Positions 1 through 12,700 of a stretch of 58,902 nucleotides of DNA are shown one piece after another. Made by a program: the position numbers and the translations under genes. Within the stretch, counting starts at the first letter, position 1. Every line of letters starts with the position of its first letter. The stretch lies in contig CAZKWI010000001.1 of assembly GCA_964556455.1 (NCBI GenBank), positions 1 through 58,902 of the forward strand. The letters are read 5' to 3'. The notes below the pieces were generated by a model. The model was not told where the DNA came from, did no database searches, and saw only the letters and a list, made by a program, of their open reading frames with translations. This DNA is from an uncultured Planctomycetia bacterium (GTDB lineage: Bacteria; Omnitrophota; Gorgyraeia; JABMRJ01).

Positions 1-3000
1 TAATATTTCCCGGGCATTCTCGTCAGCTTTTTTTCTTTGCCAGGGGGTCATGGAATCTTTCGGTCCGCCTGTGAGCCAGTCTGGAGTCGCATGCTTATGT
101 TCTTTGGTCTCAAGTGGCTCTTTAAACACAAATCGGTATTCCTTCTCCCCCGCGCCATCGTCAGCATTGCTTACATTGAACCATGCTGCTTGAGCTTTAA
201 ATCTATCGTGGCTTATCTCCACTACATCAGGCCTGTTACCTGCTCCCCTTGCGAGTTCTCTACGCGTCTTTTCTATATTGAGCAGTGCTTTTACATAAAT
301 AGGCCTTGCCCTTTGAGCAGCGTCCCGGGTGAGAGTGATAAGACATCTGTTCGATTCAAAGAAATTGTCCAGCACATCCGCTGTCATTGCCTCAGGCATT
401 AGCCTTAGGCTCCAGTAATACGCGATTGAGGCGATATTGATATGCCTGTATCCATCACCTCTTTCGAATTGCGCAAGGTTGTCGCAGTATCCCATTTTCA
501 GATGGCCCCGTATCTCATGGATAGCTATGGAATAGACTATGCTTGAGACAAGATTCGATTGCCTTCCGTTCCGCTCGCCTCTGATAGGTATGTGGTGATA
601 GTCGTTCTTAAGCAGGAACGCTATCAGGCATACAAAGGCTGTGTTTATAGCAAGATATTCTACTTTTCCTTTTTCGTCTCTTACTATCTTTGCTGTTATC
701 ATGGGGTCGGCGTCGAATGACTCGACTTTTAATTTCACATCTATCTTTTTGGATTCGTCTTTATTCTCATTTCTCAGTATCTCTTTAAAGATAGGTATAA
801 TGCCTTTGAAATGCTGAACAGTCCCTCTTCCGCCATATCCATTCTTAAGAGCCTTATTGTAAAACTTACCGCCTTTCATATTGCCGCGGTGGCGGTGATT
901 GAGGCATTCGCGGTCATCCACTACTATGGGTACAAACCTCTTATTTTTTAATGTAACGGCATTTTTGCCCCTTTTCTCCACGGTCCCCGGCTGCAGAAAC
1001 GCCCGAAAGTTCATCCCGCCTTCATTGGCCTCCGGCGGCGAGAGGATGGCTTTGACCTCGGCTATGGCCAGTTTTCTTTCAGCCCTTGTGCCGCCCGTGG
1101 CGAGGATGGTCACTGTATCATTTTGACTTACAGACAAAAACAAAAGGTTCGTGCCTGATCCGGCAGGCCTTGAATCTAGGCCTTTAATTATCTCGATCTC
1201 AATTCCCTTGCGCCGGTATTGTGCGACGATCTCTTCCATGGCATCCATTGAATCCTGGTGTATCCCATACGGGTCTGTTACCTTAACATCCGCTGCAGTA
1301 GCATAGAGGCTGTGGGCCTTCTTCTCCTGGTAGCGGTCTGTGTAATTATCATCGTAAAGCTGGCTGTAAACGGCCTCTGATTCAGTGTATCTTTTGGCAT
1401 CTCTATCCATTCCGAGCATTTCATAAGCGTTGGAAAGATGCTCAAATCTCGCCGTGATATTTATGTGTATATCAGGCATATGGAGATACCTTTCGCATAT
1501 GATCTTTCTCGCTGCGAAAAATGCTATGGGGAAATCATGCTGATGGGTCTGAATATCTCTATATTCATCCATGAGTGCCTGTGAAATCCCGGCTGCCGCG
1601 TGAGAATCAGATGTTGAGGCGATCAACGCGTAATCTATCACTTCTTCTGCGTATTTGTAGATAGATCTATCAGCCGCAAGGAGTCCATTGAGCGCCCTCC
1701 TGATAGCAGTCTCTTTTGATATTCTCTCTTTGTTGTTGCCGGTTAATTCCATCCTATGCAGGTATCGCATTACAAGTAAAGTCACTACCACACCCGCTGC
1801 GAAAGCCCCCAGGAGGCCGAGGGCGTATATCCAAGTGCCTACTCCTGTGATCACAAGGACAGATGCAATATCCCATGACCCGCGGCGGGGGTGAGATCGA
1901 TCTCTTTTGGATGGCTTATCAGTCTTTAATGCCTCCTCGAGCCCGCTCAGGAATGCCTCCAGCCTCTTCTTGCCCTCCTCGATAGTGAGTAGCATATGCA
2001 GGTCCCTGTGCGGCTCTACTGAGTTCATGAACTTCCTCGATAGAAATTGTGTAATAAGCGGATCGGATAGGTTTAGCACTGTGACCGTGTCAAGAATGTC
2101 ATTCAGGACATCCCTGACAGATATATTTATTAAATAGTTCTCAGTTGCAGTAGACTGAAATTCGACGCTTTTATAGATTTCATCCAAGGTGCTGAGTCTG
2201 TTTCGGGTCTCTTCCAGCCACTCTCGAAGCATGTCTCTGTCTTTCCCGGGGATGGCATTGAGTTTTATAAAGCCTGTTTCGTATATCGGTCTTACCAAAA
2301 GAACATACCGGCGGAAGAAGAATGTTAAATATACGACAGAAATAAATATGACTACTAAGAATGTGCTTCGGACAATATCATTGTCAGATGTTACTTCTAA
2401 TAAAACAATGATAAAGGGCAGTATTGCGTTTACAAAGGCCGCCGTACGCAGTTTTGCGTATACCTCTCTCACTATGTCGTATGATTTCAGCTCTTCGTGC
2501 ATGTCAAATCCAACCCAGGTTATATGTATAATTTTAGCAAAGTAATACATAAGCGGCACCATCGCCCCTATTACTAACACCATTGCCGACAAAGCATATG
2601 CATCTACCCAATCCACCACCGCAGGGAAGAACCCGCTTACGCCCATAAGGCTGATGATCACCCCTAGCCCCACGATCACAAGGATAGGCACAATATCCCA
2701 TGACCCGCGGCGGCGGAAGATCCGTTTTTTATGTTTGCGTTTAGCGCGGGGTTTTTTGGAGGGTTTTTCTTCCATCAGCGCATTGAACGTGTCTACAGCC
2801 TCCTTTATGCTCACGATGCCGGCCTTTTCCACGATCTCATCTATGCGCTCAAGCACCTCTACTGAAAAATCCAGGATCCTCAAGATCCCGGCTTGCGCTT
2901 TAGGGAGCGCCTCGGATTCTCCGAGATTGCCTATTTCGGTATCGCTCACCTCAAATACAGGGTCTTTGAATATCTCTGACATCTCCTCATTCATCTTTTC

Positions 3001-6000
3001 AAGCCGCTCGCTCAATAAGGCCAGCCTGGCAAGCTCATAATTTTTATCGGGCCCTGTATCCCAAATATGTTCTTCCACCTGTTTTTGCGTGCGGAGTAAG
3101 AATTCTTTTGTCATCGCATACAGGGTATTCTTGCACATATGTTTTAAGGCAGCAGGAAAAAGTTTTTCGAATCTTCCAGCCATCTCATCCTTGTAAGAAT
3201 CTATTTTTTTCTCCATAGCTTTCATGCCGGACATCGATATATAGGCATAGTTTATGACCTGGCCTATCGCCTGGATGCGCTTCATCATTCCCGCAAGCTT
3301 AAGTTGAAATTCCTTTATCATGCGGGCATACCGCGAGCTGCCGCCTTTTTTAAGGAGTTCTTGATCGAGCTCGAGTGCGTAATTCTTCAGCTCTATTAAC
3401 TTGGAATTGAGATATTCGATGTATTCTCTCGGCTTCTCTTCCCATTCCGTAAACCGCATGCCCTCAAGGAAGGTTTTTGTTTCGGGATATATCTTATTGT
3501 AGTAGGTATCATTAAACTTTTTCCTTGTAGCCTTCAATCTTCCGTATTCTCTCACCCTCCAGAAGTTAGACCAGGTAAGCACTATCAGAAGCACCGCTAT
3601 CACGGTGCGCGATACAAGGTCCTGCCTGTCCGCTGCGGCAAGATGCTCTCCGAACGCCTGCAAAAACGATACGATCTCGGGCCAGAATAACACTATAACA
3701 GCCGCTACGGCAACTATGGCGATTATTACGGGGGCCTGTGTCTTTGCGGTTTCGCGGCCCGGGGGGTGTTTTACAGGCGGGGCTTCCGAGGGCTTCCCGC
3801 TTTCAAGGAAAAAGCGCGCGCCTGTATCCAGGTGACGCCTGTCCCAGACTAATATACTGTTTTCCTCCCCTATGCGAGTAACAAGTGCGCTCTCATCATC
3901 CGCAACCTGCTCAGCTGCTTCACGTTTCGGTTCTTCTGCCTGTGACGCTGCGGTCTCAACTGTCTTTTTATCCGGAAGAGTAACAGTTCTTGCTATAGTG
4001 GAAGATGCCGGTTCTATGTCGAGTTCGTCTTTGAGCTTTGCCAGCATCTGACTTCTTTTAGCGAGCCTTCCATCTTGGCTTTCTACAGTGGAAGTCCTTG
4101 CCGGCCTGGCGTCTTCAGTCCGTAGTTTTTCCAAGAGACCATCCAGCATACCTTCCAGGGAGTCTGTTGAGATGTATGTTCTGTCATCAAGCTGGTTTTG
4201 TGTTATTACTTTGTTTTTGAGGTCTTCGGCTTGCTTTTGTCTGTGGGCTCTGAGCCATACGGTCTTTACCCTTCTGAGGTCATGTTCATCTTGTTTAGCG
4301 TCTATGAGGCATTTGTATATGCCTTTTCTGAGCCACTTCTTGGTCTCTTCTTCGGTGTAAACTCCTTTGTTCTGTATGAAGTGGGAGTATGTGGCTATGT
4401 GGTAGTCTCCTTTTTGGAGAAGTTCTTTATAGGGGGTTATTTTCTTTGTAAGGATAGCTACATAAGGCCTTTTGGGGGAGTCTTTGTCGAATTTGGGTAA
4501 AAGGACTACGTAAGATGTCTTATTGTTCTTTAGGACTTCTGTCATACCTTTTGTATGGAAGCCTCCTGTTACAAGGGCGGCTACATTCTGGTCTTTACTT
4601 CTCATCTTATCTATAGTGTTATTTATAAGGGCCTTGTCTCTTTCTAAGGCTAGCTTATAGAAGTCTATGGCTTCGTTGAGTGACGAGAAGAGCTTAGTTA
4701 CTTTGTCATCCTGAGGAGCCTGGGATGCTATGTAGGGCGACGAAGGATCTATACGTAAAGATTCTTCGCTTCGCTCAGAATGACAACGGATAAACTCTGT
4801 GAACTTAGCTGGATTAAATGAGTCTATGTTATCCAGGAGATACTCTAACCTTCCGTTTGTGAGGGAGATGCTGAAGAGATCCTTAAGTATGAGGGCTTCT
4901 TTCTGGAGGTGGTTTAGGGTATGCTGGTCCTGCGATGTAAATAGGCCTTCTTTTATCTTTTCTTCAAAGAGCTCCATCTCACTGAATAGTGATTGGATGT
5001 CTATTGTTTCATAGAGCTTTACGTATTCAGCGTACTTTATGAGGTTCTCGTACTCACTGTCATCCCGAGGAGCTGTTGTCATCCTGAGCGAGCCTTCGCC
5101 TGCATCAGGCACTTTTCCTGTCATCCTGAGCGAGCCTTCGCTTGCATCAGGCGAGCGAAGGATCTTACCCTGTTCCCGGGTAAGATCCTTCGGCGGCTTC
5201 GCCGCCTCAGAATGACAAAGTTTCATTACATCAAGCAGATACGTATGGAACTCATAGTTCGATATCTTATGCATCTTGTACTGGAGACTCTTTAAGACAA
5301 GCGCTTCAAGGTCTTCTTTGGGGAGGGTTTTTTTAAGGGAGTGGACGAGTAGGTCTCTTTCTTTATTGGCCTTTTTGAAGTCTATTGTCTTTTCTATTTC
5401 GATGGATCCTGATAGCTTGGAGAGGTTGGGATATAACCTGTCATCCTGAGCGAGCCCTTGTTTACACCTGGCGAGCGAAGGATCTTTACGTAAAGATCCT
5501 TCGGCGCTTCGCGCCTCAGAATGACAAAGGCTTCCCTCCATCTTCTCCCAGTACTCCTTGAACTCAATATCCCCTTCTTTGTAATCAGCGCTTGTCTTAA
5601 TAAGGTCTTTTACTTCTTCCGGGTATATCCTACTGGCTATTCTTTCAAGCTTATCTATGAGCGAGTCCACTATGGCTACATTCTCTTGCTTTGTAGCTAT
5701 ATTGGCCCTGAAGCTCTCAAGATGGTCCCTGTAGAGCTTATTGTCTTCTATGCCGTATAGCTGGACTTCCTTGTCCCCCACTATGCTGAAGAACTCCCCT
5801 GCTGATAGCTCGCCTTCTTCCATGAGGTAGTCTGCTGTGGATTTACGTATCTCTTCTATGGGGAAGGTCCTGAATATGGAGGTGTCTATGTAGCCGGATG
5901 ATCCTTCTAAGGCTACCATGGATAAGTTATATTCACGTGTTAATGTGTCTAATATATCGACTATGGAGTACTGGGCAGATAGAGAGTCGTGGGCGTCCTG

Positions 6001-6312
6001 TATGTTTATTATGACTTCATCAGAGCCCTGGATACTGATCTCTTTTGTGAGGGCCTTGTCTTGGGGTATGGTGAGGTTCTCTTGTATCTTGGGGTCTATT
6101 GCAGGCTTAACAGGCTGCGGGGTGGCCCCTCCTTGAGCCCAGGTCACCTGCTGCCAGCTGAAGACAATTATAAGTATGGTGCTAATAGCACGTATTATAC
6201 GCTTATATATGCTATTATTATTGCAATATATGTAAATGTAGTCATTATTGGCTGCAATGAATGCCGATCCGCTGCTATTCTGCTCTATTTTTTTTCTGTC
6301 CTGCGGGCTCAT
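1..6312 (-). CDS. Large multi-pass membrane protein, 3'-partial (at least 2,104 aa); ORF absent from the supplied track
   Basis: I read every plus-strand triplet in phase with nt 1 from 1 to 6318. None is tta, cta or tca (the minus-strand stops) until tca at 6319-6321. The first ATG is plus-strand cat at 6310-6312. The translation starts MSPQDRKKIEQNSSGSAF...KRIIRAISTILIIVFSWQQVTWAQGG and runs off the left edge at ...TPWQRKKADENAREIL. Several strongly hydrophobic segments are present. Confidence 0.8.
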   Translation of the reverse strand, partial: MSPQDRKKIEQNSSGSAFIAANNDYIYIYCNNNSIYKRIIRAISTILIIVFSWQQVTWAQGGATPQPVKPAIDPKIQENLTIPQDKALTKEISIQGSDEVIINIQDAHDSLSAQYSIVDILDTLTREYNLSMVALEGSSGYIDTSIFRTFPIEEIRKSTADYLMEEGELSAGEFFSIVGDKEVQLYGIEDNKLYRDHLESFRANIATKQENVAIVDSLIDKLERIASRIYPEEVKDLIKTSADYKEGDIEFKEYWEKMEGSLCHSEARSAEGSLRKDPSLARCKQGLAQDDRLYPNLSKLSGSIEIEKTIDFKKANKERDLLVHSLKKTLPKEDLEALVLKSLQYKMHKISNYEFHTYLLDVMKLCHSEAAKPPKDLTREQGKILRSPDASEGSLRMTGKVPDAGEGSLRMTTAPRDDSEYENLIKYAEYVKLYETIDIQSLFSEMELFEEKIKEGLFTSQDQHTLNHLQKEALILKDLFSISLTNGRLEYLLDNIDSFNPAKFTEFIRCHSERSEESLRIDPSSPYIASQAPQDDKVTKLFSSLNEAIDFYKLALERDKALINNTIDKMRSKDQNVAALVTGGFHTKGMTEVLKNNKTSYVVLLPKFDKDSPKRPYVAILTKKITPYKELLQKGDYHIATYSHFIQNKGVYTEEETKKWLRKGIYKCLIDAKQDEHDLRRVKTVWLRAHRQKQAEDLKNKVITQNQLDDRTYISTDSLEGMLDGLLEKLRTEDARPARTSTVESQDGRLAKRSQMLAKLKDELDIEPASSTIARTVTLPDKKTVETAASQAEEPKREAAEQVADDESALVTRIGEENSILVWDRRHLDTGARFFLESGKPSEAPPVKHPPGRETAKTQAPVIIAIVAVAAVIVLFWPEIVSFLQAFGEHLAAADRQDLVSRTVIAVLLIVLTWSNFWRVREYGRLKATRKKFNDTYYNKIYPETKTFLEGMRFTEWEEKPREYIEYLNSKLIELKNYALELDQELLKKGGSSRYARMIKEFQLKLAGMMKRIQAIGQVINYAYISMSGMKAMEKKIDSYKDEMAGRFEKLFPAALKHMCKNTLYAMTKEFLLRTQKQVEEHIWDTGPDKNYELARLALLSERLEKMNEEMSEIFKDPVFEVSDTEIGNLGESEALPKAQAGILRILDFSVEVLERIDEIVEKAGIVSIKEAVDTFNALMEEKPSKKPRAKRKHKKRIFRRRGSWDIVPILVIVGLGVIISLMGVSGFFPAVVDWVDAYALSAMVLVIGAMVPLMYYFAKIIHITWVGFDMHEELKSYDIVREVYAKLRTAAFVNAILPFIIVLLEVTSDNDIVRSTFLVVIFISVVYLTFFFRRYVLLVRPIYETGFIKLNAIPGKDRDMLREWLEETRNRLSTLDEIYKSVEFQSTATENYLINISVRDVLNDILDTVTVLNLSDPLITQFLSRKFMNSVEPHRDLHMLLTIEEGKKRLEAFLSGLEEALKTDKPSKRDRSHPRRGSWDIASVLVITGVGTWIYALGLLGAFAAGVVVTLLVMRYLHRMELTGNNKERISKETAIRRALNGLLAADRSIYKYAEEVIDYALIASTSDSHAAAGISQALMDEYRDIQTHQHDFPIAFFAARKIICERYLHMPDIHINITARFEHLSNAYEMLGMDRDAKRYTESEAVYSQLYDDNYTDRYQEKKAHSLYATAADVKVTDPYGIHQDSMDAMEEIVAQYRRKGIEIEIIKGLDSRPAGSGTNLLFLSVSQNDTVTILATGGTRAERKLAIAEVKAILSPPEANEGGMNFRAFLQPGTVEKRGKNAVTLKNKRFVPIVVDDRECLNHRHRGNMKGGKFYNKALKNGYGGRGTVQHFKGIIPIFKEILRNENKDESKKIDVKLKVESFDADPMITAKIVRDEKGKVEYLAINTAFVCLIAFLLKNDYHHIPIRGERNGRQSNLVSSIVYSIAIHEIRGHLKMGYCDNLAQFERGDGYRHINIASIAYYWSLRLMPEAMTADVLDNFFESNRCLITLTRDAAQRARPIYVKALLNIEKTRRELARGAGNRPDVVEISHDRFKAQAAWFNVSNADDGAGEKEYRFVFKEPLETKEHKHATPDWLTGGPKDSMTPWQRKKADENAREIL
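1766..3735 (-). other. Gene 2 membrane-spanning regions (segments at about 3559-3735, 2290-2715 and 1766-1888)
   Basis: APVIIAIVAVAAVIVLFWPEIVSF, TVIAVLLIVLTWSNFW, WDIVPILVIVGLGVIISLMGVSGFFPAVV, LSAMVLVIGAMVPLMYYFAKII, AAFVNAILPFIIVLLEV, STFLVVIFISVVYLTFFF and WDIASVLVITGVGTWIYALGLLGAFAAGVVVTLLVM. Basic clusters (KKPRAKRKHKKRIFRRRG, KRDRSHPRRG) precede two of them. Confidence 0.65.
4705..4784. repeat. Palindromic element copy A (GTCATCCTGAGG...GCTCAGAATGAC) inside the gene 2 coding frame
   Basis: Outer arms 4705-4716 and 4773-4784 match at 10 of 12 positions. The inner hairpin is cgaaggatct / agattcttcg (4741-4750 / 4759-4768) with loop atacgtaa. The frame stays open, and the translation is ...RCHSERSEESLRIDPSSPYIASQAPQDDK. 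Confidence 0.75.
5059..5216. repeat. Palindromic element copy B, with a triplicated left arm
   Basis: Left arms gtcatcc[ct]gag start at 5059, 5078 and 5120. The 32 nt at 5078-5109 recur at 5120-5151 with one mismatch. The inner stem is a perfect 14 bp, gaaggatcttaccc / gggtaagatccttc. The right arm ctcagaatgac ends at 5216. The frame is open, and the translation is LCHSEAAKPPKDLTREQGKILRSPDASEGSLRMTGKVPDAGEGSLRMTTAPRDD. Confidence 0.75.
5440..5525. repeat. Palindromic element copy C
   Basis: gtcatcctgagcgagc ... gcgcctcagaatgac. The inner stem is a perfect 12 bp, gaaggatcttta / taaagatccttc. The frame is open, and the translation is LCHSEARSAEGSLRKDPSLARCKQGLAQDDR. Confidence 0.75.
6140..6200 (-). 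other. Gene 2 N-terminal signal-anchor or signal-peptide-like segment
   Basis: KRIIRAISTILIIVFSWQQVTWA/QGGATPQP has a basic n-region, a hydrophobic core and an AxA-like TWA site. It is preceded by an unusually long stretch of about 36 aa. Confidence 0.4.
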
Positions 6313-6363
6313 ATTATCTCGTCAACGGGTTAATATCTTTTCTAAACGCTTAGATTGCCGGAT

Positions 6364-6400
6364 AAAAAAATAGGGCCTGGTTCCCCAATAGCCCAGACCC
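6364..6400 (-). terminator. Intrinsic-terminator-like hairpin plus U7 between the promoter candidate and the gene 2 start
   Basis: The minus strand reads GGGUCUGG-GCUAUUGGGGAA-CCAGGCCC-UA-UUUUUUU. The arms are 6393-6400 and 6373-6380, forming 8 bp including one G-U pair. The loop is 12 nt and the U-run is 6364-6370. Confidence 0.45.
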
Positions 6401-6443
6401 CCTAGTCTGCGAAACTTTATTTACTGCTTTACTAATTAAAAGA

Positions 6444-6472
6444 AGTATATCATATACAAAATCAAAAGTCAA
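6444..6472 (-). promoter_or_regulatory. Sigma70-like promoter candidate for gene 2 (TTGACT-N17-TATACT)
   Basis: The minus strand reads ggcTTGACTtttgattttgtatatgaTATACTtc. The -35 element is plus-strand agtcaa at 6467-6472. The -10 element is plus-strand agtata at 6444-6449. The spacer is exactly 17 nt. The site lies in an AT-rich spacer about 130 nt upstream of ATG 6312. Confidence 0.35.
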
Positions 6473-6564
6473 GCCTTAAATACTAGCTTTTTTAATATCT
6501 AATTTTATATATAAAATGTCTTTAGTAACTTTAATCCCTATACAAAAATCTAACTATTAGAAAA

Positions 6565-6773
6565 AAGGGGACGCCTCACTCGTCTTTAACGCATTATATT
6601 ATATAAAGTTATAGGAGTAGCCGGTACATGTTAGAAAAAATACATTAACTTTTGACATTATGGCTGGATTGATATGAGAGTATGGACAATGGGATGGGAG
6701 TGAAAAAAATGTACCTGTTACTATAGTAACTCGTTATGTTGTTTGGTGTAAGAGAGGAGTGAGGCGTCCCCTT
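6565..6773 (-). repeat. 17-bp perfect inverted repeat (6565-6581 / 6757-6773) enclosing 175 AT-rich nt, followed on the minus strand by a U-tract
   Basis: aaGGGGACGCCTCACTC at 6565-6581 is the exact reverse complement of GAGTGAGGCGTCCCCtt at 6757-6773. On the minus strand the second arm is followed directly by a T-run (plus-strand A-run 6561-6566, whose last two bases overlap the arm). The interior contains a 14-nt palindrome GTTACTATAGTAAC (6717-6730) and a 7-bp pair ggtacat (6623-6629) / atgtacc (6709-6715). The element starts 22 nt after the giant-gene stop. Confidence 0.5.
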
Positions 6774-6794
6774 ACATACCCTTACATACGTCCC

Positions 6795-9700
6795 TTACAT
6801 GGCGCGTTCGACGGCGAGGGTGGATGTGCGGGCTTCGAAGAGTTTCTGGAGCTCGATAGGCATAACGGCCTTTATCTTTAGGTCCGGTAACAGCGCAGCG
6901 ATATCTTTGTAATCTCTCCTGCTGCCGTACAGGTATAATGCCGGTTCGCTGTCTATGGAGATGCTGAGTATGGCTGAGAGCTTGCCGAGTGTGCCCTGAT
7001 CAAGGCCTTCGCCTATTATCCTCAAGCCCATCCTTCTGGCTTTCTTGTCAGATATGTTCTTGCCCATCTCCTGCTCAAGCCTTATCATGAAATCATTCCT
7101 GGCGGACATCGTATCGAGATTGCCGGACTTTGTGCTGAGGAGCATGACGAATTTCCCGAACACTTTAGGCGCATCCAGATGATCCGTTATAAATCCGTTC
7201 ATTGTGGAGGTACCAACCCCTATATTATGCTTTTGTAATTTCGCTATCATATCGGTTACGGTATCGCTCTCGGGTCTCTGGGTGATTATCCTGACTTGTG
7301 TGCTTTCTCCGACGAGATCCGCTATCTCACTGACGGCAAGAGGCGCCTCGAGGAACGTATCCTCTATCACTATCGTTTCATAGGTAAGCGGGCTCTTTTC
7401 CATCTTCTCTGCCGTGATAAACGCCTCTTTGTATTTGTTGTCGTTTACACGGCCGCCTATGATGGTGTCGATAAGACTGGTACGGGACTTCTTCTCAGCG
7501 GGCGGCCTGACCGCGGTCCGCATCAACGGCTTTACGGGCGCGGGCCTGAACAGCTTAATGCCGGGCAAGGCCTTAAGCCGGGTCTTCAGCTTTTGTATAA
7601 ACGTGAATTTATCTTTCTCAGCCGTGTCAATAGCGGCATCACGGGTTATACTGCTTTTCACGGCGCTCATCACTTCCAGCACCACCCTGTCATCCTGCAG
7701 GCTATCGCGCGAGATAACCGGTATCGTATTTACATGCCCTATTTTGGCGTACAGCGCTGTCAGCTCACGGTCGCTCAACTGCCCAAAGCCGTCCCTTATG
7801 ACCGCGATACGCTCTTTCAGCGTTTTAAGCCCTTCTCTTACGCCGTCAGGCATCGGGGCGGTGTAAAGTATCTCGTCTATGGTGCCTATCTCCTCTATGC
7901 CGTCCTTCAGGCGGGCCATCTTGTCATTAAGCCTGGCCACCTTGAAGCTTTCGCCGTCATAATAGAGCTCTTTTATATCGCCATTCGATTCTATTATGTA
8001 TTCGGATACAAACCGCCCGTAGAGCCTTTCTGTGGCGATGGCTGTGGCGGCGTCGCCGAGGAATTTATACCCTTCGCCTGCGGCGGCCGGCTCAGGATGC
8101 GTATGCAGGCTCAATAATACCCCTTCCTTACCGGAGAGGAGGTCCATCAGGTCTTCCGCGCCGTAGGTGAAGGATGTGCTTATATACTCTATCTCACCGG
8201 TCACATCAGAAATCGCTGTAATTGATCCGTCAGAGGTGATGACCTTACCACTGGAGAGAACGACGATCTTGCTCTCCTGTCTCATGCCTTCAGGGCTTCT
8301 GGCGCTTACCATGAACGCCAGCAGGCGCTCTTCCACGTTGTCCCATGCCTCTTCCGGCAGGAATGGCGCTATCTTGCCGAACAAGCGCTCGGTCTGCTTC
8401 GCTATCCTGGGGGTTATGCGCGCAGCTACAGGAGGAGCGGCATGTTTTGCGACAAGAACAGGAACTACTGTGATCTCTTTTATCCCGTCTGCGAACAGCT
8501 CTTCTGCCGCAGCTACAAGCCGGCCCTTCGCCGCGCTGTCCGCGATATAAACATGGAAATCTGCGGTCCTGACCTCTTTCCTGCGCGCAAGTGCATAAGC
8601 CCCTTTATGGTTGCCGTACAACCACTCATCCATTTTCATATGGGAGTAGTCTTTTGTCGTTAAAGATACCTTCCAGCCGCCGTTACGCAGATATTTTTCA
8701 GCGGCATCCGCATCTGTCATTCTCTGCCCCGGCGTCAGGCCAAACTCAATCTCTTTGCCTTCTGCGTCTACGGCATCCGCTTTTACGGGCTTGGTTATTA
8801 CCGGCGGGGCTTCCGGCTCTTCATAGTCAATCACAACGGGCGTACCGTCCTCAAACGTGTCACTAGGCGTATCAGACAGCTCCTCGTCAGCCAAATCCTC
8901 CAAATCAGCGGCCGGCGTAAGCTCGAACCGGCCTCTTCTCCCGCTAGCCAATTCCGCGCCCAGCAGTTCTTCGGCTGCGATCTTATTCTCCGTAGCCGTC
9001 GATGTGCGGGCGGTTCCGGCGTGCGGCTCGGATATCGTCGCTGTGCGGGCGGATGCCGCGGCCGATTCAGGCGCTCCGGCCTCAACCTCGGCCGCCGGCG
9101 TTCCATGCCTTGGCCTTCTCCTCGGCGTCTCTTTTCTCCAGCCGAGCCACGTCTCACGTCCCGTAGACCCGGTTTCAAGCCTTTTGCCTTCCGCATCGTA
9201 GAGGGTTTCGCTCGTCCCGCGCTCCGCGGGTTCGCCTTCAAGCCTTCTGCCATCGCCATCATACAGGCCTTCCCATTCTCCTTCCGGCCTCTCGGCGTAT
9301 TCGTGTGTCCCATCAGGTTCAACCGATGCAGCGCCAGGCATGATAACAGGCGATGGCGGGGTTGTGCCTGTCTCTGCCTCTCTGGCCTCCAGCGCTCTTC
9401 TCAGCCTATCTAACACTTCATCAAAGTCGAGATCGGTGTCTTCTTCTTCCGCTGTTTCCGCAGAAACAGTCTCTTCTACCTCCGCCTCGGCCGGAGCGAC
9501 TTCGGCTTCGGTCGCCTTCCTCGGCTCTGCAGTCACCCAGTCGAGCCATGTCTTCTGCCCCATGAACATGCTTTCAGGGCTCTCGCCTTTAGGGTCATAT
9601 GGCGTATCCCATTTTTCATCGGACTTCTTCAGATACTCACCTACCTTTTCAAATCCTGACGCGTCGTCATGTTCTATGAGCTGCTGCATCGGGTCGGTGC

Positions 9701-12700
9701 CGCTTACCATGCCGTCTATGAACTCCTTGAATAATGGCCTTGCTTCTTCCTTTGTCCTCGGAAGCCGCTTCTCCATGAATTCATCGAGCTTGCCCGCGGC
9801 GTCAACAAGCTTCGCAAATACACCTTCGGCGTATACGCTGAACATATCGCTGGCTTTATCATAAGCTCCGGCACCCTCTCCCCAGGCAAGCGGATTGAGG
9901 CCCAGCGTGTACTCGCAAGCTTCGTGTACGAACTGGCTCATGAAGAAATCCATGCCTGACCTCACTATAGAGTCCCTGCTCGCTGTATTTAAATACAATG
10001 TACTGTCGTTATCAAAAGTGGTAAACGGCACTCTGTTAAACCTCTCTTCTTTCTTACGCTGGCCCTCAAAGCGATGGTCCGCTTTTTCCGTGGCGAAGTT
10101 AACCCACTTCAGGGACATCCTTGAAAGCCCTATAAGCGCCCTGTCCAATAACTCTTTCTGGTAATCAGGCAGCAGGCCGCTTGCGAATTTCTGTATGTAT
10201 TTGCGGACACCTGCTATCGCCCTGCGTTTTAATTCATAGGGTTCCATAGCCGATATGTCATCGCTCAATTCATAACTGTGCCTCGTGACCCCGGTGAATA
10301 CCTCATTCGTAGGCACACGGCCGGAGTCTTCCATTACCCTTATTATAATTTCGGCATTCTCTTCCGGGGTGCTGCCCGTAAGTTTAGCGCCGAGCTTAAG
10401 CTCTATGCTGCTCTGGAGCTCGGGTGTCATATTTTCAAGCATGCTCATCGAACCGCCTATGAGCCACTCTTCCGTAATGGTTCTCCTGGCCAGCGCATAG
10501 AGTGTCTCTATCTTTGTATCATTCCTCTCTTCTTCGTCCATCGCCTCTGCCAGCTCTGCCATCTTCTGCGCCTCTTCAGGGGTAGCGACCTCTTTCGAGC
10601 CGTCAGGCCTGACGAACGCCAGGCGCCTCAATACAGTCTGCGGCGCAACTTCGAGCTCTTCGGCCCTCTGGATCACCTCTGCCAATGATGCGGACCTTTC
10701 TTCTCCTTCTGCGACAAGGCCGCCAAGGTCGATCTCGGCTTCGAGGTCATCCGTCCTGTCGAGGAGGGCCTGGGCACGCTGGAGGAGATCGCCCATACCG
10801 GCCTCTTCGGCGTTCCTCGCGAGCTGATCCATCTCTCCGGCTATGCTCTCATCAAACTCTCCGGTCCCTTCAAGATACGCCCTGCATCTGGAGGCCATGG
10901 CGTAGAAGACCGATCCCAGGAGTCTCATGTGGGCCGCTTCCTCTTCTGAGAGCGATTCATCATCCGCATTAGCAAAGAGGGCGTTGCCCCTGTCTACCAG
11001 AGATCTCGTGAGGGTATTTAATCTCTCCACGGCCCTGCGCCTCAATCCTGCGGTTGGCGTTTCCTCGATAGCATCTATAATTCCGTCGAAGTTATCCATC
11101 TCAGCCAGGAGCCTTCCGGAAAGGGCTACCACTGTCTCCATCGCCCTGTATGCGGCATAATTCATACGGCCGTCTACATTGATGGCATCCTCGTATAAAC
11201 CGGTTGCCCTCCAGAGCGCAAGGAAACGCTCTGATATATTCTGCAGGCGCCCATCTATATCCGTGTCCCGTTCCTCCGCCTCCAGGGCCTCTGCCCTCTG
11301 GATAAGACTGTCTGCCTCCCTTGCATTATCTTCTGCAGTCTGCTTCTCTGCCAGGTCGGTAATTGCGCCTTTTCTTGCGGCATCTATCTCTGCCTGCCTA
11401 TCCTCACTAAGCAGTCCGTCTTCGGCTATAGCCTCAGCCGCTCTCAGGTGCTCTTCTGCTCTATTAGTATTGCCCCTGTTTGTATGGGCAGTCGCCATCG
11501 CAATGTGCATGTCGTAAAGCTCTTTCGAGGCCTCTGTCAATTCGACATCTGTCTCCGAAGACTTCGCTATCGCAGGCGCCAGGTTTTCATTTATCTCGTC
11601 AACGAATCCGGCGGCTGTATTATTTATATCTTCCGTATTGTATATACGAGGTATCAGGGATCTGCCCACATTGAGCCAGAGCAGTATCCTCACATAGAAG
11701 GCCTTCCTCTTCACATCTCCGCAGAACCTGTCGATCTCGCCCACGAGCCCTCTATCAAAGGCTTCGTGTTCACTCGTAGCCTCAGCGCCGGCAGCTTCGG
11801 TTATCCTGTCAAGCGCAACAACGTTCAACTGTGCCATTGTGAATCTCGCCATGGAGACCAGCGCTTCCACTTCGCGGCGGCCGCTTTCGCTCACAGTAGC
11901 GTCACTTTCAAGGCGTTCTATAGCGGTTGCCTCTATTCTCCCAACAATAGCCTCTGCATGGTCTCTTGCGCCTCTGGCGTGGTTCAGCCTCTCATCGTCA
12001 TCTACATCCTCGCCCAGCATGTCTCTCAGCCCGGCAATATCTTCGAATATCCTGCTGTCGGTACTCCTGTCGAGTAAGCCCATAGCAACCATGGCGTCCA
12101 CAAGCTCTTCTATCGTATTCACATCCGCCGTAGTAACTTCCGCCAGGGCGATCTCAGCTTCAAGAGTATGGGCGCTCAGTGATGCCGCCTCTTCGTCTCT
12201 CGTATCCATCGCCTCATCGTACGAGGCCTCTTTCCCACCAAGGAGGACTTCCGCCTGCCATAAGTCTCCGGAGGCGATGAGGGCGTTTATCCTTCCGTCT
12301 TGAGCCTTGTCGCTTTCAGGATCTATCGTTAAGACTTCCCTGTCTACCCTTGCGGCATCGGCATGGCGTCCGGCCTCGCTGTATTTTCCGCCTATCTCGA
12401 GATACTCCTCTGCCGCCTTTTCATCACCTTCCTGGGCGCGGGTTATCCTTGCGCGGATTTCAAGGGCTTCAATGCGGCTGCCATCAGCTTCGATAGCCTT
12501 GTCACAGAGTCCCGTTATCCTGGCTGAGGTCTCTTCATCCAGGCTGCCCCTGCGCTCCAGGCAGGAGGCAAGGTTTATATAGGCATCCGCTGTCTCTGTG
12601 CCGTGGTCGATCGCCCTCTGGTAATTATCTGCCGCAAGACCGTAGACGCCCATAGATTCATAAGAACTCGCAAGACCGTAATATGCCCTTGCCATCTCGC

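Follow-up and report, generated by a model that had tools for sequence, protein, structure and literature searches.

Three palindromic elements, A, B and C, lie inside the coding frame of one long minus-strand gene (gene 2) in a 58,902-nt stretch of contig CAZKWI010000001.1 (assembly GCA_964556455.1, an uncultured Planctomycetia bacterium placed by GTDB in Omnitrophota), which we refer to as the window. Our analyses indicate that these elements are probably tolerated in-frame passengers in variable linkers of the encoded protein: cargo-less dimers of a hairpin associated with Ssn nucleases, translated as loops. By their arms they belong to the CGTC/TGTC-tagged superfamily of repetitive extragenic palindromes (REPs), which includes Neisseria dRS3/NTS and Rickettsia RPE-4/-6. 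In-frame insertion of palindromes is already known; the repeat variant and the host phylum found here are not covered by PMC11893778 (Chenal et al., 2025) or PMC3733652 (Di Nocera et al., 2013).

All three elements share one orientation. None interrupts gene 2, as an earlier note on this DNA, made from the letters alone, had proposed (coordinates are given in Table 1). The gene 2 frame is stop-free to the left end of the window, where it leaves the window after at least 2104 codons, and has an ATG at 6312. Measured from TGTCAT to ATGAC, the elements are 81 nt (A), 159 nt (B) and 87 nt (C) long, each a multiple of three, and add 27, 53 and 29 residues, respectively, read in one frame. Sense frame 0 is the only frame that is stop-free in all three copies. 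With at most one mismatch, the sequence GTCATYCTGAG has 12 sites in the window, eight of them within 4705-5525, against an expectation of 1.96 +/- 1.38 over the full 58.9 kb, and none of the shuffles gave as many as 12. No further element copy was found in the remaining 58 kb of the window. The G+C content of the elements is 49-58%, compared with 43% for the surrounding host domain.

The perfect inner stem that the earlier note ascribed to every copy exists in B (15+15 nt) and C (14+14 nt), whereas the inner palindrome of A has one mismatch (GAAGGATCT / AGATTCTTC). The triplication of the left arm of B was borne out: the tag appears three times on the plus strand of this copy, at 5059 (with one mismatch), 5078 and 5120, and 5078-5111 equals 5120-5153 at 32 of 34 positions, with a single difference in the first 33 nt. 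The truncated arm that starts at 5078 is a duplicate of the start of the complete arm. On the gene strand the elements encode CHSERSEESLRIDPSSPYIASQAPQDD (A), CHSEAAKPPKDLTREQGKILRSPDASEGSLRMTGKVPDAGEGSLRMTTAPRDD (B, running CHSEAAKPP...SLRMTGKVPDAGEGSLRMTTAPRDD) and CHSEARSAEGSLRKDPSLARCKQGLAQDD (C). A further claim, that the arms are read in different phases, holds for B's two extra arms alone (SLRMT); the outer arms of A, B and C all share one phase, yielding CHSE... and ...QDD/RDD.

The same kind of element is widespread. A scan with the pattern GTCATYCTGAG-N45-75-CTCAGRATGAC, using one genome per bacterial species, returned at least 120 loci, and among the matches listed the family occurs in more than 15 bacterial phyla. 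Hosts include Bacteroidota isolates (Hymenobacter, Mucilaginibacter) and assemblies of Chloroflexota, Acidobacteriota, Omnitrophota, Patescibacteria, Bacillota, Planctomycetota, Verrucomicrobiota, Gemmatimonadota, Nitrospirota, Pseudomonadota and others. The element is therefore not unique to this locus, and its description as a widespread, mostly intergenic repeat resembling REPs or MITEs (miniature transposable elements with inverted repeats) was apt: approximately 95% of 126 sampled copies lie outside long open reading frames (ORFs). The sampled copies share one plan, GTCATYCTGAG-CGNAGC-GAAGRATC followed by a variable, usually self-complementary centre and the inverse arm, and the DNA arms of the window elements are identical to intergenic repeats of unrelated phyla. 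In only seven of the 126 does the open frame extend for 100 or more codons upstream of the copy and for 60 or more downstream. Pfam confirmed some of these seven as genuine in-frame copies, which lie within the TatD DNase domain of a Saccharibacteria genome (L114:2646-2719; Pfam profile positions 1-253 span 312 residues), close to the end of an Omnitrophota PurS-PurL fusion (L078) and inside a protein of Planctomycetia with at least 2666 aa (L086); another copy (L091) is probably a read-through between two genes. Across the family, copies occur in both orientations relative to genes and are read in other frames in other genes.

The insertion pattern of the family is simple. The elements end as GTCAT...ATGAC, with T before and A after, and nothing further is conserved. 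Direct repeats of 2-6 nt in the flanks of the 126 copies were at or below chance, so that no target-site duplication was detected; a MITE mobilised by a DDE transposase was rejected on this ground despite the inverted ends. Family lengths are uniform modulo three (43/42/41). Dense arm arrays with BIME-like clustering were seen in an Aminivibrio genome (L057:3237-4806, 16 tags in 1.6 kb), over a 10-kb metagenome contig (L132:810-9592, 13 tags) and at the end of a viral contig (L171:8546-8969, five tandem elements). In one locus (L139, JACKQG010336037.1) the flanks of the copy are inverted complements of each other (CTGCTGACTTT ... AAAGTCAGCAG); this element may have landed in the loop of a pre-existing hairpin, or else some copies may have a longer palindrome. 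A full-text literature search for the arm sequences returned just primers and unrelated matches, and the 14-mers never occurred.

Each arm consists, in order, of an unpaired TGTC, ATYCT, GA, GCGNAGC, GA, AGRAT and a conserved C. Its shape is a stem with two tandem G.A pairs, closed by a GNA mini-hairpin (core GCGNAGC); the nine stem positions are A-T, T-A, Y-R, C-G, T-A, G.A, A.G, G-C and C-G, and the fold as single-stranded DNA (ssDNA) has 5+2 pairs. Folded with DNA parameters, the arm and the Neisseria NTS adopt one shape. Positions 6 and 22 of the 25-nt arm form C-G in 137 arms and T-A in 81, being non-Watson-Crick in six of 224, so that 218 of the 224 arms have an ATYCT/AGRAT stem with Watson-Crick covariation. 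The two arms of an element combine freely, 41 of 105 elements being hybrids. Given this covariation within arms and the free mixing of arms, the conserved pairing lies inside each arm and not between arms, and we rejected a strand-specific long RNA stem, which the outer arms' T.G asymmetry had suggested. The base straight after the palindrome, a position left free in the search pattern, is C in 222 of 235 arms, and the next base is T in 186 of 235, a tail that differs from CCA. All eight window arms begin with TGTC; across the family, 77% of copies carry TGTC and 19% CGTC, the base before GTC being T in 97 and C in 24 of the 126 copies, with GTC itself forming part of the search pattern.

Within the window, the three complete plus-strand arms are all of a 45-nt, long-loop variant, with loops of 13-25 nt instead of the 3-nt GNA of canonical arms; in element C the ssDNA fold of this arm retains the ATCCT/AGGAT stem. 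The minus-strand arm is canonical in A, where it is identical to the commonest arm in other phyla, and has a lengthened mini-hairpin in B and C. The right-arm module of B and C also occurs in 21 metagenome contigs with a G+C content of 45-73%, and no empty-site allele was found among these 21 loci of the metagenome scan.

We compared gene 2 with its relatives using the element-free N-terminal 622 residues as a query, which retrieved 50 homologues (E 1e-45 to 1e-190, identity 31-51%), nearly all of the named ones from Omnitrophota. Element peptides of the CHSE/LRMT type are present in none of the 50. In a MAFFT alignment with the 29 best homologues, site B is a clean 53-aa gap, site C corresponds to an unrelated linker of ~10 residues (e.g. 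LAAKTGTDYR) and site A to an unrelated segment of ~17 residues (e.g. DASLKYGVAIEGNYDL) that gene 2 is without. The flanks of every copy are colinear with the alignment in one frame on both sides. An AlphaFold2 model of the host domain, built from a 49-sequence alignment, had a mean predicted local distance difference test (pLDDT) score of 81.9 and a predicted template modelling (pTM) score of 0.78. In this model the three sites lie in a long helical region between the N-terminal and C-terminal beta/alpha parts, in agreement with the note's placement of the elements between two conserved halves of the N-terminal domain. Blockwise pLDDT exceeds 90 on either side and falls exactly over the inserts, to 51-60 in C (model residues 211-230), 37-55 in B (below 50 at model residues 323-356) and 62-71 in A, so the three elements are modelled as low-confidence loops between confident helices. 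A tolerated surface-loop insertion is accordingly the best-fitting of the three options that the note had offered.

The open frame is unlikely to be fortuitous. Family copies are stop-free in 223 of 756 frames (~0.3), and with one length class in three keeping the frame, a random insertion would be harmless about once in ten, and three in a row with a chance of ~1e-3. We therefore interpret the intact frame as the outcome of selection acting as a filter.

A candidate enzyme for the family emerged from the genes that its arms enclose. SsnA and the proteins homologous to it (CDD cd10448) act as site-specific nucleases that bind their hairpin motif only as ssDNA and cut a few nucleotides upstream of it, leaving double-stranded DNA and RNA alone; the three bases before the palindrome (GTC) are important for cutting, as is the C that directly follows it for binding (PMC11893778). 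Their own motif, the Ssn-related motif (SRM), borders most ssn genes, and the motif-gene-motif layout (NTS-ssnA-NTS) was called insertion sequence-like by the authors (PMC11893778). We found GIY-YIG genes exactly between arms of the present family in L042, L132, L145, L148-153 and L189. The first, a 96-residue gene of Omnitrophota that came from the scan, stands between a plus arm and minus arms, and L132 is a second case; in the Omnitrophica locus L145 13 nt separate the end of an arm from the ATG, and the stop codon is directly followed by the inverse arm. In the isolate Thermodesulfovibrio hydrogeniphilus (Nitrospirota; L146) the gene is bracketed by a sister family, GTCACTGCGAG/CTCGCAATGAC, and viral contigs yielded one more arm-bracketed case among 42 matches. 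The arm-bracketed GIY-YIG protein has more than 6000 relatives in the database, all PF01541. The arm-flanked Omnitrophota protein P0051 (~96 aa) is 52% identical (E 6e-22, tblastn) to a 94-residue N. gonorrhoeae gene surrounded by CGTCATTCCCGCGCAGGCGGGAATC repeats (NTS), which its length, context and species identify as the SsnA orthologue. Since the same arms bracket Ssn genes elsewhere, we regard the window copies as non-autonomous relatives of an Ssn-hairpin unit.

The arm-flanked GIY-YIG gene of L148-153 adjoins a primase-helicase gene and a serine recombinase gene, neighbours that place it in an integrative mobile element, possibly a vehicle between phyla. In L148:1-3294 (also L149-L153), the Ssn gene and its arms lie between genes for a D5-type primase-helicase and a large serine recombinase. 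Of the nine listed Ssn gene calls that were over-long, five included arm-derived peptides (such as RHSERSEES or ILRFAQND).

Taken together, these findings suggest how the window may have acquired its elements. All three are cargo-less head-to-head dimers of the tagged hairpin, B forming a small cluster of such arms. Within the helical insert of the gene 2 N-terminal domain, they would have been added to three short variable linkers or taken their place. Copying into gene 2 may have proceeded through an ssDNA intermediate, aided by an Ssn enzyme encoded elsewhere in the genome, and survival would have been limited to copies whose length, orientation and phase were right. Their persistence would follow from lengths divisible by three and from the single sense frame that is open in all of them; the ribosome would read them as hydrophilic, disordered loops of 27-53 residues that the fold tolerates, the protein presumably being made and the elements being neutral passengers.

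Several observations weigh against this interpretation. The published SRM pattern, HGTCWYN(0-2)YYVSBRHN(0-5)WNVSBRGN(0-2)RNCYNB, matches none of 252 family arms and no site in the window, and it does match the NTS control. The loop and tail of the window arms differ from those of families 1-4 of the CGTC-tagged REPs (the tail being CTY as opposed to CCA). No ssn homologue was found within the 59-kb window. The native linkers are gone at sites A and C, a loss that simple insertion alone does not explain; a later deletion and a recombinational replacement are both possible causes. The closest gene 2 homologue is only 51% identical. We know of no demonstration that Ssn units transpose or otherwise move. 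The published in vivo role of Ssn is restriction of incoming ssDNA during Neisseria transformation (PMC11893778). On balance, the window elements resemble known systems by their tag, the way the stem begins, the C that trails it, their dimer form, the sizes of their peptides and the link to Ssn, and differ in SRM pattern, loop and tail, which argues for a variant within a known kind.

Table 1. Positions of gene 2, of the three elements and their arms, and of palindromes in homologues (window coordinates unless a locus is named)
Feature	Position	Strand	Description
Gene 2 host ORF	1..6321	-	N-terminal signal/transmembrane segment, then alpha/beta domain with large helical insert, then long C-terminal region with transmembrane segments
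Element C	5440..5526	-	87 nt, residues 263-291 (CHSEARSAEGSLRKDPSLARCKQGLAQDD); head-to-head dimer of two tagged hairpin arms
Element C plus-strand arm	5440..5484	+	45 nt, long-loop variant: GTCATCCTGAG-CGAGCC-N13-GGCGAG-CGAAGGATC
Element C minus-strand arm	5495..5525	-	GTCATTCTGAG-GCGCGAAGCGCC-GAAGGATC; GCGAAGC mini-hairpin lengthened to GGCGC-GAA-GCGCC
Element B	5059..5217	-	159 nt, residues 366-418; dimer plus two extra plus-strand arm fragments (cluster)
Element B extra arms	5059..5119	+	tag 5059-5069 (GTCATCCCGAG); truncated arm from 5078
Element B complete plus-strand arm	5120..5164	+	45 nt; ssDNA fold -13 kcal/mol
Element B minus-strand arm	5184..5216	-	GTCATTCTGAG-GCGGCGAAGCCGCC-GAAGGATC
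Element A	4705..4785	-	81 nt, residues 510-536 (CHSERSEESLRIDPSSPYIASQAPQDD); most diverged copy
Element A plus-strand arm	4705..4749	+	45 nt, long-loop variant
Element A minus-strand arm	4760..4784	-	canonical 25-nt family arm GTCATTCTGAGCGAAGCGAAGAATC
Palindromes in homologue loops	L121:1409-1567, L122:1676-1834, L123:10910-10984 and 11471-11566		

Other palindromic repeats occur in frame at the same loops of three gene 2 homologues. At site A, P0001 combines a GGGGACAGTCCCC palindrome with the right half of an element of the GTCATTGCGAG type; P0028 has an entire NTS-like GTCATTCCCGCG...GGGGATGAC element together with one more arm near site A; and P0014 has GGGGACAGTCCCC hairpins, which yield peptides of the KGTVPFGDSP type, at site C and another hairpin at site A. 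The comparison shows that the same linkers have been repeatedly colonised by palindromes across the protein family. It is conceivable that these loops are actively targeted and not just permissive, with different Ssn-type hairpin families or other palindromes entering or replacing the linkers in separate lineages. The disappearance of native linkers at two of the three sites is consistent with an ssDNA-based, hairpin-directed cassette replacement that diversifies a surface protein beside a giant gene and, if true, would be the first trace left in nature that hints at movement of Ssn-hairpin units. Tolerance alone, however, would yield repeated colonisation, and we therefore think active targeting unlikely.

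Slightly less probable still, in our view, is that the repeat peptides were recruited as protein segments and kept for a function, for instance as flexible or variable surface linkers of a cell-surface protein whose gene adjoins a giant one, the loops being selected sites of diversification. The different in-frame palindromes of P0001, P0028 and P0014 would fit such a role, as would the position of the elements at A and C in place of the homologues' native linkers, but recurrence is equally expected if these loops are the only insertion-tolerant places. Furthermore, the peptides are conserved only so far as the DNA arms require, other genes read these elements in different frames, and the inserts are of low confidence in the model.

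We also considered whether the elements act in the mRNA, as hairpins that pause translation, set co-translational folding breaks between subdomains, or protect or target the message. Many intergenic REPs have been argued to work as RNA (PMC3733652), and the outer stem here is still paired through G.U on the sense strand. Folding the RNA, a check that the earlier note had recommended, gave structures far more stable than shuffles, at -30.9 kcal/mol (z -4.7) for A, -82.6 kcal/mol (z -6.2) for B and -46 kcal/mol (z -5.8) for C. The covariation across the family nevertheless backs the local arm hairpin and not a long-range stem, and in 41 of 105 elements the hybrid arms would place a wobble and an A.C mismatch on either strand. 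Copies also occur in both orientations relative to genes, and SsnA shows no interaction with its motif in RNA form (PMC11893778). A search of window 4000-6800 against Rfam at a permissive threshold matched no family at E values up to 1, and a known structured RNA or ribozyme was rejected. A role in the mRNA thus appears quite improbable.

It is very unlikely that the insertions mark a decaying gene whose frame is open by luck. Three insertions in 820 nt of one gene are a heavy load and native linker residues are absent at two sites, but the frame remains open over its whole length in the window, the conserved domain motifs are intact and confidently modelled, and the chance that three random copies all keep the frame and are stop-free is ~0.1 cubed. 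We give almost no credence to ordinary coding sequence native to the protein family, or to repeats mis-joined in metagenome assembly: repeats can mislead assemblers, but the segments are absent from homologues, their DNA arms match intergenic repeats of unrelated phyla, and the flanks of each copy follow the homologue alignment in one frame.

No Pfam family matched gene 2, and a PDB sequence profile search and a Foldseek search against the PDB with the N-terminal domain (window 4330-6135) gave no significant match. The weak, non-significant Foldseek matches were the erythromycin esterase EreC, BcR135, ChaN and HopBA1 (probability up to 0.41). Conserved DAH...AQ...EG...GG.HT motifs in this domain hint at an esterase/Tiki-like superfamily. 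Directly upstream of gene 2, on the minus strand, is a giant ORF of 17,349 codons (window 6795-58844). In another Omnitrophota contig (L123) a giant gene of at least 9145 aa is followed by the gene 2 homologue P0014, and since the pair recurs, the two genes appear to be a conserved unit. The AT-rich spacer between the giant ORF and gene 2 (G+C 27-38%) contains a 68-nt inverted repeat (6565-6632 and 6706-6773; 71% complementary, 73 nt apart). Further into gene 2, a 54-nt direct repeat with 81% identity (1838-1891 and 2663-2716) encodes RRRGSWDIVPILVIVG... and HPRRGSWDIASVLVITG..., each followed by a hydrophobic helix; we rejected it as a member of the palindromic family, as it is a duplicated protein segment (RRGSWDI plus transmembrane helix).

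The probable identification of the window elements as tolerated, Ssn-associated hairpin dimers joins three separate strands: the repeat that gives CHSE/SLRMT/AQDD-type peptides in metagenomes, the CGTC-tagged REPs, for which no enzyme was known in 2013, and the Ssn nucleases, which were reported in 2025. It indicates that the published SRM pattern overlooks a very widespread arm variant, for which the association between Ssn and hairpin is extended to Omnitrophota (two assemblies), to unclassified metagenomic and viral contigs and, with sister arms, to Thermodesulfovibrio. For annotation, it accounts for a class of spurious small ORFs and of over-extended GIY-YIG gene calls. For protein evolution, it offers a case beyond Rickettsia of selfish palindromes turned into loop peptides, unusually dense with three in one domain, in loops that have been colonised repeatedly in a protein family linked to giant genes.

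Comparison with known systems places the elements closest to the Ssn-related motifs (SRM; Neisseria NTS/dRS3) and the CGTC-tagged REPs. Like the SRM and NTS, the family has an unpaired xGTC, a stem starting with AT, a C straight after the stem, inverted arms on both sides of a single-domain GIY-YIG gene of ~95 aa, and many scattered copies without cargo. Its stem, however, contains tandem G.A pairs and the GCGNAGC mini-hairpin, whereas the SRM is a continuous 8-bp stem with a 4-nt loop. The hosts also differ, the family occurring in Omnitrophota, Patescibacteria, Chloroflexota and Acidobacteriota and PMC11893778 emphasising symbiont-rich Pseudomonadati. Word searches of PMC11893778 found no mention of in-frame or intragenic copies.

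CGTC-tagged REPs often carry TGTC as the tag (CCTC is allowed too), have a stem of 8-9 bp that begins with AT (first pairs A-T and T-A), form mostly head-to-head dimers and include Neisseria dRS3 and Rickettsia RPE-4/-6; their intragenic in-frame dimers encode 20-30 aa and their clusters 43-82 aa, and no dedicated transposase was found in 2013 (PMC3733652, Di Nocera et al., 2013). The family described here shares the CGTC/TGTC tag, the AT stem start, the head-to-head dimers with variable spacers and the mostly intergenic location with an in-frame minority, the window values being 27, 29 and 53 aa. It differs in its loop (3-nt GNA or 13-25 nt in the window, as against 4-5 nt), in having arms that bracket Ssn genes, and in its presence in Omnitrophota, which are absent from the hosts in PMC3733652. 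The supplementary tables of that study contain no CHSE/LRMT/AQDD peptides.

In their behaviour (in-frame insertion), the elements also resemble the Rickettsia palindromic elements (RPEs), which according to a review (PMC10969869) have been known in frame in protein genes since 2000 (Ogata et al.), lie in unrelated protein genes and add peptides judged compatible with the fold. The same review describes RPE-1 as ~150 bp long and confined to Rickettsia, and nearly half of the R. conorii RPEs as intragenic, compared with ~3-5% of the present arm family; the window, by contrast, has three copies in one domain of one gene. Finally, REPINs and their RAYT enzymes (Bertels and Rainey, 2011; PMC3116915, PMC3337134) offer a parallel in which the replicating unit consists of two inverted REP hairpins and a spacer, no target-site duplication is made, and the enzyme gene is itself flanked by repeats. 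Mobilisation of a REPIN by a RAYT was dropped as an explanation, without a systematic RAYT search, because the tag is (C/T)GTC and not GTAG, and the gene between the arms encodes a GIY-YIG nuclease and not an IS200-like HUH tyrosine transposase.

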